A stretch of 25,783 nucleotides of DNA from an uncultured virus (IMG/VR IMGVR_UViG_3300018414_000001). Taxonomy: Duplodnaviria > Heunggongvirae > Uroviricota > Caudoviricetes. The notes under the pieces are model-generated. The model saw only the letters and a program-made list of their open reading frames with translations. It was not told where the DNA came from and did not search any database. Location of the stretch: IMG/VR virus record IMGVR_UViG_3300018414_000001; one strand, written 5' to 3'. Below are positions 17,749 to 24,539 of the stretch, one piece after another. The translations under genes and the position numbers were made by a program. Numbering within the stretch: position 1 is the stretch's first letter; each line of letters begins with the position of its first letter.

Positions 17749-17842
17749 GAGAAAGAAGGGATCGCCGCCGCGATTAGGTAGGCCGTTAACCTTGGGCGCA
17801 CAGGGCCAAAGCCAGTCCATCGCAGCGGCGACCCCATTTCTC
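17749..17842 (-). terminator. Long stem-loop right after the capsid stop; possible terminator, mRNA stabiliser or processing site
   Basis: 17-bp arms 17819-17835 and 17758-17774 (2 G-U pairs), 44-nt loop, followed by UUCUUUCU; outer GAGAAA/UUUCUC pairing is possible. Confidence 0.5.
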
Positions 17843-18959
17843 AAAGGGCATCTGCGACGACTGTCGCCCATTCCGGCCTTATCCAAAGCGCACCCCAAAC
17901 CACGTCAAGCCGGGTTCCCGTCTGATCAGTCCCAATCACATATTGAGTGACCATCCGCATCGACACACCGTCAAACTCATGGCGGGCGGCATCAACCTTA
18001 GGCGGGATTTCCAGATCGGCCGTCGCCATCGTAATCGCCTCGGGGACAAAGACGATGTTCTTCCGGTAGGTGGTGTTGGCCGGCCCTTGCAACGTGATCG
18101 TGGCCGAGTTCGCCGGGCTGATATCGGTCGTCTGGTATTGGACCTGGGCACCCCCAACGCCCCCAGGGATCAACGCCGGATAGATCGTGATGGAGGTCCC
18201 GCTTGACGCCACCGCATTCACCACCACGAACTGCCGAAGCTGCCCGTAGGATTTCTTGGTGATACGGTTGACCCCATTCACGCTGGCGAACGTGATGATA
18301 TCGCCCGCCGCCAAAGTGCCGGTGATCGCGTTGACGGTGATCACGCTGCCGGTCTGCCCGGCGCCAGAAACAGTCCCGGCCGTGAAGGTGCCGGAAGTGT
18401 GCTGGATGACGGTTTGATCGCTCAGCCAATCGAGGCCAAGCGCGTTCTTCATCCCACCTGAACGATACTGTTCGCTGATTTCAGTAGCGGGATTGAAGAG
18501 CCCAGCCAACGCTCCGGCGGTTCGGGCATCGGTGTACGGGTTGATCACGATCCGATGGTTAAGCACGGGCGCCGACTGCGTAGCCAGGATGGCGTTCGCG
18601 GTCAGGAACGTGTTGATCGACGGGGTGATGATCACGCCAGCGGCTTCGTTGTCGATGTAGTTGCAGACGCCGCCCTCGGCACCCGCCATCACACCGACCG
18701 CGACATCGCCAGCGAGGTTGTTCACCGCCGGGGCGATATAGCGTTCCGCGAAGTCATCAATGGACAGCGTGAGATCGATGGACGGGAACGTCATATCCAC
18801 GCCGTCCTGCGTCGCCATCGTCAGGGTCGTGAACTGTTCGCTCACATCCTGGAACGATGCCGCCGCGCCATGCCGCACGGTGAAATCGACGGGCAGACGG
18901 ATACGCAACTGACTGCCGATCTTGGCGCCCTCGCGGGCGTATTGGTCGTCGTACTGTGT
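17841..18959 (-). CDS. Major capsid protein, P22 coat family, exon 2 (372 aa; spliced product 402 aa)
   Basis: Frame extends 17 codons above the TTG at 18908: TQYDDQYAREGAKIGSQ-LRIRLP; coat motifs LSIDDFAERYIAPA and TRLDVVWGALWIRPEWA. Confidence 0.92.
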   Translation of the reverse strand, partial: TQYDDQYAREGAKIGSQLRIRLPVDFTVRHGAAASFQDVSEQFTTLTMATQDGVDMTFPSIDLTLSIDDFAERYIAPAVNNLAGDVAVGVMAGAEGGVCNYIDNEAAGVIITPSINTFLTANAILATQSAPVLNHRIVINPYTDARTAGALAGLFNPATEISEQYRSGGMKNALGLDWLSDQTVIQHTSGTFTAGTVSGAGQTGSVITVNAITGTLAAGDIITFASVNGVNRITKKSYGQLRQFVVVNAVASSGTSITIYPALIPGGVGGAQVQYQTTDISPANSATITLQGPANTTYRKNIVFVPEAITMATADLEIPPKVDAARHEFDGVSMRMVTQYVIGTDQTGTRLDVVWGALWIRPEWATVVADAL

Positions 18960-19255
18960 CTTTCTGTTCGTTCAAGATCGCTATCCTTGAACCGCCAAGG
19001 CTGCTGCAACTTTCATTGCAGAACAGATCATATCATCACCCCGTATCGGGGGCTGCGCGCTTCGGGCCGCTTGGCCCTACTCCCTTGCGGGATGATCGTT
19101 GAACCTTACCCACTTGCGAGGGTCTTGGCTGCTGATTGCCCAATCCATTGTGCTTTTTGACCTTCGCGCCTGCTCTTTCGGGCTACGCTGTGGCGACAAT
19201 GGCTCTAAGGGTGTCCCAGTCAATTCACGCAGTTTATTCTCGACCGTACATGTTA
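18960..19255 (-). ncRNA. Group I self-splicing intron, 296 nt, no endonuclease ORF
   Basis: Exon ends in U, intron ends in G; P1 CUCGAU/GUCGAG with U-G at the splice site; P3 CUGCGUG/CGCGCAG; P4 UUGACUG/CAGCAG; P7 A(C)GAUCA/UGAUCU; J8/7 GAUA; P9 with GAAA loop; excision restores the reading frame. Confidence 0.92.
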
Positions 19256-19345
19256 ATCGAGGTTGCGCATAAACGCATTCGTATTTTTCCACAGTCTGAC
19301 GGCCAGCCTTGTGATCATGTTGATCGTAAGCAGGCTGTTGGCCAC
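19256..19345 (-). CDS. Major capsid protein exon 1 (30 codons)
   Basis: GTG start with GGAG 9 nt upstream; MANSLLTINMITRLAVRLWKNTNAFMRNLD resembles a P22-family coat N-terminus; directly followed by TAA. Confidence 0.9.
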
Positions 19346-19547
19346 TTTATTCTACTCCAAACGAATGCACGAGCCGAAGCTACAAGTGCTGGACAAACAA
19401 AAATCCATCTCACTCCCTAAGAGGTCTTGACGGAGGTCTGATTTGCCACTCGCGTTGGAGTTGTATCGTTAGCCACGCAACGTAGTGGTAGGCTATTCGC
19501 ACATTTAAGGCCCGGCGGCCCTTACCGCTTAACTTAGAAACCGAACG

Positions 19548-20360
19548 TCACCGCCCCGGCCTCCGTCCCAACAACTTCCTCCCCAGGTCCGACTTCTCGA
19601 AAATCGCGTTCCATTCTGCCATGGAAAGATTATCGTCGAAGATCGTGGGCTCCGGCAGCACCGCCGCGACCTGAAGCGGAACGGCGGGACGAGGCGCGGC
19701 AGACGATGGCGGCGTTTTGATCGGCGGGGGCGGCTGAGACATTTTTGCGTCCATTCGGCCAATCGCCGCCGCCATCGCAGTCGGGGTTTTGGCAAGGAGT
19801 TCGACAAGACCGTCGGCGTCGTCTGCCAAGGCGGCGAAGACTTTCTCGGGCGCTTCAGTTTCGGCAAGCGCCTGAAGAAATGTTTGGTTCGCCGTGGCAC
19901 CGAGCGCCGTCATGGTTGCCTTGGCGGATTCCCATGTTTCCGCGCCCAATGCCTCCTTGCCCTTACTGTCGATCTGCCCTAGCCGCGAGTTCAACTGTCG
20001 TTGCGCGATGACCTGAGCGATGCGGGCTTCATCGTCAACCACCGGGGGCGGTGGCGCCTGATCGGTTGGCGCTTTGTTTGCATTGAGCAACGCCTCGGCG
20101 GCTTCAGCGCGGCGTTCAGCGGCGGCTCTTGCCTCTGATTCAGCCGCGAGCCGGGCTGTTACCTGAGCAAACCGGCGGTCACCTTGTTTGGGCTTAGGAG
20201 GCGGTGGCGTGTCACCGGGTTGATCGGCGTCGGGGACGGCCTTGGTGTCGTCTGGTGCCGCGTCTTGCGTTTGGGGAGTATCAACTACCGTTTGATCGGC
20301 CGGGGCCACTGCAACGTCTTGTGGCGCGTCCTGGGGGGTATCCGTCAGTGTATCGCTCAT
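19548..20360 (-). CDS. Capsid scaffolding protein (270 aa)
   Basis: Acidic Pro-rich N-terminus, DRRFAQVTAR coiled coil, MAAAIGRMDAK, C-terminal LSMAEW; between portal and coat; GAGG RBS. Confidence 0.85.
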   Translation of the reverse strand: MSDTLTDTPQDAPQDVAVAPADQTVVDTPQTQDAAPDDTKAVPDADQPGDTPPPPKPKQGDRRFAQVTARLAAESEARAAAERRAEAAEALLNANKAPTDQAPPPPVVDDEARIAQVIAQRQLNSRLGQIDSKGKEALGAETWESAKATMTALGATANQTFLQALAETEAPEKVFAALADDADGLVELLAKTPTAMAAAIGRMDAKMSQPPPPIKTPPSSAAPRPAVPLQVAAVLPEPTIFDDNLSMAEWNAIFEKSDLGRKLLGRRPGR

Positions 20361-23787: not shown

Positions 23788-23978
23788 CGTTTCTCCTTCT
23801 CTCTGCCGGGCGACCGGGTATTATCGCGGCCCCGGGGGATTTCCGTTGAAAGCGGCGAACGGGTGTCGATGTTCTCCCGCCGCACCGTCCCGGGATCGAC
23901 GCGCCGTTCGTCCAGAGAACGCAACGGCGGCTGCGAGAAGTTGCCCGTTGGTTTGGGGTCGCTGATGTTGTGGTTCAT
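23784..23978 (-). CDS. Small disordered hypothetical protein (64 aa)
   Basis: Overlapping start and stop codons at both ends. Confidence 0.6.
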   Translation of the reverse strand: MNHNISDPKPTGNFSQPPLRSLDERRVDPGTVRRENIDTRSPLSTEIPRGRDNTRSPGREKEKR

Positions 23979-24172
23979 ATCATCTTCCCTGAACCGAGAT
24001 GTTCCACCGCTACGCCTTGCCAGTCACATTCCGGGCAGCGCAGCGCCTCATACGGCACCTTTCCGTCCGGCCAGCCCTTATCAGGCGTCCCACCGCGCAT
24101 CAGGCGCACGTCGCGATCCTGGACGCGGCATGACGGGCAGCAAAGCGGCGGCGCGGCAAAGGATGCACTCAC
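23975..24172 (-). CDS. Small zinc-ribbon-like protein (65 aa)
   Basis: CPSC and CPEC pairs; GTGA and ATGA overlaps. Confidence 0.65.
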   Translation of the reverse strand: MSASFAAPPLCCPSCRVQDRDVRLMRGGTPDKGWPDGKVPYEALRCPECDWQGVAVEHLGSGKMI

Positions 24173-24498
24173 CGCACCCGCATCTCAGCCGCCTTCATAG
24201 GCGACAACTTCGATGCACCACGTTCGCCGCGCGCCGCTATCTTCATCCCGTCCGACTTGAGCGACGGCTGCTTACCCATATTGGGCTTACCCCGTTCGGT
24301 TCCGGGCTTTTCGCGGGTGGCCTCACGCATCCCGTCACCGCGGCCACCAGCCTTGGTCTCAGGATCGCCAGGGTTCGCGGGCCTCCCCGCCTTGCCGTCT
24401 TTATGGCCGCGCATATACGCTTCGTGATGCGGCTTACGGGGTTCTTCCTTCCGCTTCGGCTCTTCGCGACGCATTTCTTTACGATGGGGTTCACGCAT
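24169..24498 (-). CDS. Highly charged basic low-complexity protein (about 109 aa)
   Basis: ATG at 24498 follows AAAGGAAAGG; alternative start at 24555; rich in R, K, E, P and G. Confidence 0.65.
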   Translation of the reverse strand: MREPHRKEMRREEPKRKEEPRKPHHEAYMRGHKDGKAGRPANPGDPETKAGGRGDGMREATREKPGTERGKPNMGKQPSLKSDGMKIAARGERGASKLSPMKAAEMRVR

Positions 24499-24539
24499 GG
24501 GGATGGCCTTTCCTTTAGGTGTAACTGAACCGATGGTGA

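Follow-up and report, generated by a model that had tools for sequence, protein, structure and literature searches.

We conclude, at a probability of about 0.9, that the coat gene of an uncultured phage of the Caudoviricetes is split after codon 30 by a 296-nt group I intron that contains no open reading frame (ORF) and that splices. The gene lies in the stretch of DNA analysed here, 25,783 nt in its full length and called the window below. The insert itself (18960..19255, minus strand) is a group I intron, on the combined evidence of a covariance model, covariation over a 39-row alignment of relatives and collinearity of the exons with uninterrupted homologues.

The interrupted coat gene

The minus strand of the window carries a P22-like morphogenesis module, recognized by Pfam and PHROG profile matches: large terminase, portal, scaffold, coat, head-closure protein, ejection proteins and lytic transglycosylase. 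Neither Pfam nor PHROG profiles match a 221-aa ORF on the opposite strand (23863–24528, plus), whose neighbours are the portal gene and the large terminase gene.

The coat gene starts with a GTG codon, 9 nt downstream of a Shine–Dalgarno motif GGAG read from the sequence (19355..19358, minus). Exon 1 (19256..19345, minus) has 30 codons, ends in ...NLD with U as its last base, and is followed directly by an in-frame TAA (19255–19253). Exon 2 (17841..18959, minus; 372 codons and a stop) opens with TQYDDQYAREGAKIG and matches two coat profiles: PF11651, the P22-type coat (E 3.4e-29, profile positions 37–417 of 423), and phrog_283 (E 4e-53, profile positions 36–382 of 385). Both matches begin at profile position 36 or 37; about 30 residues are therefore absent from exon 2. 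A first reading, made from the sequence alone, had claimed that the called coat ORF lacks its N-terminus and had placed a 30-codon exon with a ribosome-binding site, ending in NLD before a TAA, upstream of it; the profile starts agree with the former claim and every coordinate of the latter holds.

Removal of positions 19255–18960 joins the 30 and 372 codons into a protein of 402 aa. Read together, the exons match the P22-type coat family along its length, exon 1 aligning with the N-termini, that is, the first 30 residues, of the 402-aa members. On these profile matches the host gene is identified as a P22-type coat gene.

Of 8000 candidate proteins scored in a homologue search with exon 2, 4440 had E <= 1e-10, and most of the best 120 of these are about 402 aa long. 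Exon 2 is 91% identical to P0003 and P0004. In P0004, an uninterrupted protein of 402 aa, an exon 1-like part is followed by an exon 2-like part with no gap and no extra residue. The same comparison was extended to 63 coat loci of IMG/VR: the coding parts are directly adjacent in all 32 loci with a clear exon-1 match (E <= 1.1e-6) and also in 28 loci with a weak one, the remaining three having no usable match. Since the exons abut in uninterrupted homologues, the insert represents extra sequence in a gene that is otherwise continuous. The continuous 402-aa frame proposed earlier for the spliced gene thus proved, once the alignment was run, to be exactly collinear with its intronless homologues.

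The nearest relatives (L001–L003 and L030, 86–96% identical) have no intron. The last base of exon 1 is C in these four loci, in the synonymous codon GAC, and T in the window; a U at this position is shared by the window and all five other alleles with an intron at the same site. The T fits the U.G pair that the splice site requires.

It had also been predicted that standard gene callers would truncate such a gene, and a 324-aa call from an internal Met (P0031) is indeed found among the close homologues. Capsid-based phage taxonomy and marker-gene surveys would consequently overlook genes of this kind or record them at the wrong size.

Because the window comes from a metagenome, a type of sample rich in this intron family, an assembly chimera, in which an intron from another phage was joined into the contig, has to be weighed. 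We regard it as extremely improbable. The guide sequence of the intron is complementary to the end of the coat gene's own exon, and excision leaves a perfect reading frame. Sequence G001 is 100% identical to the window over 18900–19400 (501 nt), although it is the same virus and therefore not independent. Intron and exon 1 are also spanned, without difference over 18993–19355, by a contig (X5 record 1) from a DNA run that carries no flag as a possible source. All sampled words are present in runs X1–X4, the four freshwater-metagenome runs that contain the window DNA in full and are possibly its source; the DNA run of X5 record 1 contains part of it.

Structure and splicing of the intron

The proposal of a group I intron could be checked by an Infernal search. 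RF00028 is the sole Rfam match in the window; it is full-length (model 1–253 of 253, window 19281–19004) and scores 60.5 bits against a gathering cut-off of 50, with E 2.9e-13, which is far beyond chance. The boundaries of the intron were set by protein collinearity, by P1 and by the terminal G (18960), at which the exons join in frame. P1 was placed by hand because the Rfam alignment puts it on the wrong exon bases. An intein or a frameshift was considered and rejected in view of the in-frame stop, of a length that is not a multiple of three (296 mod 3 = 2) and of the covariance-model match.

No homing endonuclease is encoded in the intron: Pfam gives no match for the only overlapping ORF, which is out of frame and 71 aa long, and no endonuclease domain was found in it or in the 22 large ORFs of the window that were scanned. 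By this measure the window copy is not a mobile (homing) intron.

The minimum-energy fold of the insert is unremarkable (z = -1.83; 8 of 200 shuffles fold as well), and minimum-energy folding cannot represent the P3/P7 pseudoknot. The fold was therefore tested on relatives. These were gathered by a near-invariant motif at the P5/P4/P6 junction, which yielded at least 120 IMG/VR stretches, and an alignment of 39 rows (the window, 34 ORF-less IMG/VR members and four GenBank phages) was scored against a hand-drawn structure. With the structure drawn on the sequence of the window and the relatives chosen by a motif inside P4–P6, two choices that favour the observed pairing in the P5/P4/P6 helices, 85.4% of the cells are paired, compared with 34–44% when the partners are slid by 1–3 columns. 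Changes on both sides occur in 47 of 67 pairs, and the covariation score is 0.48 versus at most 0.124 in the controls, a value reached by none of 500 shuffles. P4, P5 and P6 are nearly invariant; P3, P5a, P6a, P7.1, P7.2 and P9 covary.

All helices are given here on the minus strand. P1 (19239..19261) pairs the exon end CUCGAU (19261–19256) with the guide GUCGAG (19244–19239) and has the U.G pair at the 5′ splice site. P3 has 7 bp between its 5′ strand (19226..19232) and its 3′ strand (19053..19059); 93% of its cells are paired and five of the seven pairs change on both sides. P4 (19222–19216 with 19135–19130, region 19130..19222; 98.7% paired) encloses P5 with its P5a–c extension (19211–19139), in which P5 is paired in 99.1% and P5a in 89.8% of the cells and six of seven P5a pairs covary. 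The P6/P6a hairpin, with a GCAA loop (19103..19129), is 100% and 96.1% paired, and all four P6a pairs covary. P7 is formed by GAUCA (19093..19097) and UGAUC (19026..19030), as supported by covariation in the alignment. Then there are the hairpins P7.1 (UCCC GCAA GGGA, 19081..19092; 78% paired, four of four pairs covarying) and P7.2 (GGGCC AAGC GGCCC, 19064..19077; 69–81% paired, all pairs covarying). The P8 hairpin (19039..19051), the site of an HNH gene in relatives, is paired in 63% of the cells, in a stretch that aligns poorly. P9 (19004..19021) has 7 bp and a GAAA tetraloop; it is 78.5% paired, and seven of seven pairs covary. Two peripheral hairpins follow on the 3′ side (18971..19003), the first with a CUUG loop (19003–18992) and the second at 18991–18971, and after them the intron ends with CGAACAGAAAG, the last base being the terminal G. 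These hairpins have counterparts in relatives, and the coat-gene relatives have related 3′ ends, mostly GAACA...G. P10, read from the sequence, has at best 3 bp.

The P3–P9 core, including the P3/P7 pseudoknot, is thus supported, with the exception of the outer two pairs of P7. In this helix the window differs from the family consensus GACUA/UAGUC by two compensated changes; the fifth pair is G–C in 35 of 39 rows, and the four innermost pairs are 94% paired. The sequence-only reading had given exact coordinates for P1, P3 and P9, as found on reading the sequence, and its P4, P6 and P8 recur in the aligned relatives at the frequencies reported above. Its bulged P7 stood in part: the inner pairs are retained by the family, and the two outer ones, with 54% of cells paired, are not.

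In introns of subgroup IA (IA2-like phage introns), P7 and P3′ are separated by an additional pair of hairpins, P7.1 and P7.2. Both are found here (19092–19081 and 19077–19064), all nine of their pairs covarying at 69–81% paired cells. The overall architecture comprises no P2 (6 nt separate P1 and P3), an extended P5, P7.1 and P7.2, P8, P9 and the two 3′ hairpins; the absence of P2, the extended P5 and the P7.1/P7.2 pair together make up what we take to be the layout of subgroup IA. Judged by helix layout, the intron is classed as IA-like. The helices P7.1 and P7.2 are named in PMC3984707, and in the accessible part of Selles Vidal et al. 2025 (PMC11835236) IA2 accounts for over half of viral group I introns.

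On the basis of this structure a splicing pathway can be proposed. In the pre-mRNA, the exon end CUCGAU would pair with the guide GUCGAG to form P1, and an external guanosine bound at P7 would attack after the U of exon 1. The freed exon 1 would then attack after the terminal G, joining ...NLD to TQY... in the 402-aa coat protein. Without splicing, translation would end at the TAA with which the intron begins, and capsid production would therefore depend on the ribozyme. The earlier reading had drawn attention to this in-frame stop and to a length that is not a multiple of three, from which the dependence of coat synthesis on splicing is predicted to follow; both were confirmed in the sequence.

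No exon–exon joint was found in the contigs of three RNA libraries, which cover only 19055–19286 and 19311–19589, nor in those of one DNA run. One of these contigs (X6 record 3, 19136–19286) crosses the 5′ splice site unspliced; it could be precursor RNA or carried-over DNA. The RNA-library contigs neither support nor refute splicing.

A decayed relic that no longer splices, within the coat pseudogene of a defective phage, would be consistent with the lack of spliced RNA and with the contig that is unspliced across the 5′ junction, and the missing endonuclease gene and the unexceptional fold energy could be understood in the same way. This is very improbable, however, given the state of both gene and intron. 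The exons are intact, with no frameshift or stop and 91% identity to full-length homologues, and the remaining head and tail module is intact as well. All core helices are kept, the two changes in P7 are compensated, every invariant column of the family is present in the window intron, and the U at position −1 and the 3′-terminal G are retained.

It is also conceivable that a real intron requires a phage or host protein for splicing in vivo, as some group I introns do; the weak P10, the absence of P2 and the lack of a maturase-like ORF in the intron would fit such a requirement. Nevertheless, the core is complete, as seen from the RF00028 match and the covariation, and small ORF-less phage introns of related architecture generally self-splice in vitro, which counts against the need for a protein. 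We consider this alternative improbable, and infer that the insert is an intact group I intron that splices efficiently.

Staggered insertion sites and the wider intron family

A search pattern that links the J8/7–P7 core of the intron to the downstream coding motif GAKIG was found in 27 IMG/VR stretches and in 21 metagenome stretches, 11 of the latter repeating IMG/VR matches. The same linked pattern had no match in the genomes of 185,579 species, prophages included, so that no host can be named.

The 27 coat introns of IMG/VR are located at three staggered sites within 19 nt. The window's site, after codon 30, is used in five (L190, L201, L205, L209 and L213); a site 7 nt further on in 21, including L199 and L200, which have further upstream interruptions; and a site at +19 nt in one (L191). 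The coat proteins concerned are only 34–61% identical to that of the window. Most of the 27 copies are about 700–800 nt long and six are short like the window's. An HNH_3 gene was found inside P8 of both coat-intron relatives that were scanned, L083 at the window's site and L106 at the +7 site.

All 19 distinct junctions in coat genes allow a P1 that has 6 bp or more and U.G as its last pair, and they show 10 different combinations of exon and guide. This count is not fully independent because P1 pairing was partly used to place the sites; by our estimate, a P1-type helix would occur by chance at roughly one locus in ten. At the +7 site, the exon reads CGTGAGT in L203/L206 and CGCAGGT in L195, versus CGTCAGT elsewhere, and the guides, GCTCACG and GCCTGC, respectively, change in step. 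Compared with the other +7 loci this is, at the level of the sequences, exon–intron co-variation across phages.

In L199 and L200, whose coat genes are 61% identical to the window's, the first ~33 codons contain several interruptions. L199 has two separate Rfam-scoring group I introns (77.3 and 60.9 bits). In both loci (L199, oriented ~800–1620; L200, oriented ~1090–1640) an insert of ~55–90 nt, starting after a U, follows the KNT codons, and part of this insert is complementary to the exon bases just before it. The insert is followed by a 31-nt micro-exon, which holds the missing ten residues, and then by the +7-site intron. The short insert is too small for a group I intron.

The coat-gene intron copies are 64–80% identical to the window's in the 5′ core whatever their site, and for this reason no donor can be named. 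The best IMG/VR relative among the matches listed, L092 (204 of 274 aligned bases identical), lies outside a coat gene. We infer that the ORF-less copy of the window most likely descended from HNH-carrying introns at the same or neighbouring sites of other coat genes, and that it would now be fixed in its phage lineage.

The sites could be explained by a single intron family contesting the first ~37 codons of P22-type coat genes, an ORF-less copy shielding its gene from the endonucleases of its relatives. We put this forward as a tentative and rather unlikely reading. In it, the window copy would break up the conserved target sequence, most relatives having an HNH gene, and the staggered sites would reflect several rounds of re-targeting, either through reverse splicing or through offset cleavage followed by repair. 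Modest interest is added to the case by the staggered hot spot and by the idea that an intron copy without an ORF may guard the coat gene against endonucleases encoded in its relatives; the hot spot may be used for studying how group I introns change their target sites.

The family extends well beyond coat genes. There are 228 records with relatives in deposited phages, and some of the best deposited matches are in N4-like Pseudomonas phages. In Serratia jumbo phages a relative is located inside an RNA polymerase subunit gene. The closest deposited relative, in Escherichia phage nepoznato (L067, MN850571.1 140830–146057), lies just upstream of the tape-measure gene. Its other neighbour is an endonuclease-like ORF (phrog_681). 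The tape-measure gene matches its profile only from position 17, which suggests that this gene is split near its 5′ end.

The host genes were surveyed with PHROGs in 62 ORFs upstream of sampled IMG/VR copies. They include 12 endonucleases, five major head proteins of five different PHROG families, five DNA polymerases, two NrdD, two Sak4-like proteins, two virion structural proteins and one each of portal, terminase, RNA polymerase and tail-associated hydrolase. Capsid genes host eight of 78 distinct sampled copies, including three P22-type coat genes from tblastn. In the textbook view phage introns favour genes of DNA metabolism; capsid genes as frequent hosts in this sample qualify that view.

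Comparison with known systems

The T4 introns in td, nrdB and nrdD (sunY), of subgroup IA2, are small group I introns in protein-coding genes of nucleotide metabolism, and those of td and nrdD carry endonuclease ORFs. From their general description, they resemble the window intron in having P7.1/P7.2 hairpins and an in-frame stop codon close to where the intron begins, and differ from it in their host genes and in these endonuclease ORFs.

Group I introns in capsid genes are already published and are common in environmental phages, which runs against the novelty implied by the sequence-only reading: they are in print for the mycobacteriophage LittleE (PMC3706429) and for the major capsid protein (MCP) genes of crAss-like phages (PMC7886860), as the accessible text of both papers indicates. 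What appears to be new here, from sequence comparison, is the recurrence of one family in 27 IMG/VR coat genes, at three sites in a single 19-nt stretch and with site-matched guides. For an intron in a P22-type coat gene no published description was found in our search, the scope of which did not include subscription journals and supplements. Several other papers were examined as possible capsid precedents and set aside: in its accessible part PMC12880540 concerns terL and nrdD instead of the MCP gene, and the accessible parts of PMC6669764, PMC8594841, PMC11283397, PMC9769974, PMC8557907 and PMC2248197 do not bear on capsid introns.

LittleE is a Cluster J phage in which RT-PCR and N-terminal sequencing demonstrated splicing of the major capsid transcript (Pope et al. 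2013, PMC3706429; this and what follows from the available portion of the article, which also cites a capsid-gene intron of the lactococcal phage Tuc2009). Like that of the window, its capsid intron is near the 5′ end of the part encoding the mature protein and was judged most likely to be of group I; exon 1 ends in U, the intron in G, and capsid is made only after splicing. The window would thus offer another example of a ribozyme on which the most abundant virion protein depends. Unlike the window's, the LittleE intron is about 820 nt long and has a homing endonuclease gene on the opposite strand, and the phage is a siphovirus of a high-GC Gram-positive host with another capsid family; the two ribozymes are likened by class alone.

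Group I introns in the MCP genes of crAss-like phages were reported by Yutin et al. 2021 (PMC7886860, available in part), with up to four interruptions per gene. As in the window, a capsid gene is split in uncultured phages and gene calling is confounded; in contrast, those introns were recognized by their endonuclease domains, in gut phages of another capsid lineage.

Vibrio phage 1.232.O (MG592596.1) has the second-closest deposited relative, 69% identical over intron positions 21–256 and located directly 3′ of a truncated 'major capsid protein' CDS, in a record without annotation of the intron. It differs from the window in its capsid (phrog_1357), in an insertion near the 3′ end of the gene and in the HNH_3 gene within the intron. 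In this record (L066, 5084–10305) the annotated 289-aa MCP matches only positions 36–260 of the 356 of phrog_1357 and is followed by the unannotated group I intron, then by the HNH_3 gene and lastly by a hypothetical protein of 72 aa. The MCP gene is probably split here without having been annotated so, and the truncated CDS is a further example of the gene-calling problem.

By its sequence, the window intron is a member of a large phage intron family that includes the gp210 intron of the jumbo phage PhiPA3: intron positions 31–160 of the window copy share 73% identity with the non-coding stretch that separates gp210 from gp209. According to the accessible part of Birkholz et al. 2024 (PMC11620839), the PhiPA3 intron lies in a virion RNA polymerase gene, unlike the window's, and its active HNH nicking endonuclease handicaps a co-infecting phage, whereas the window copy, in a coat gene, is ORF-less.
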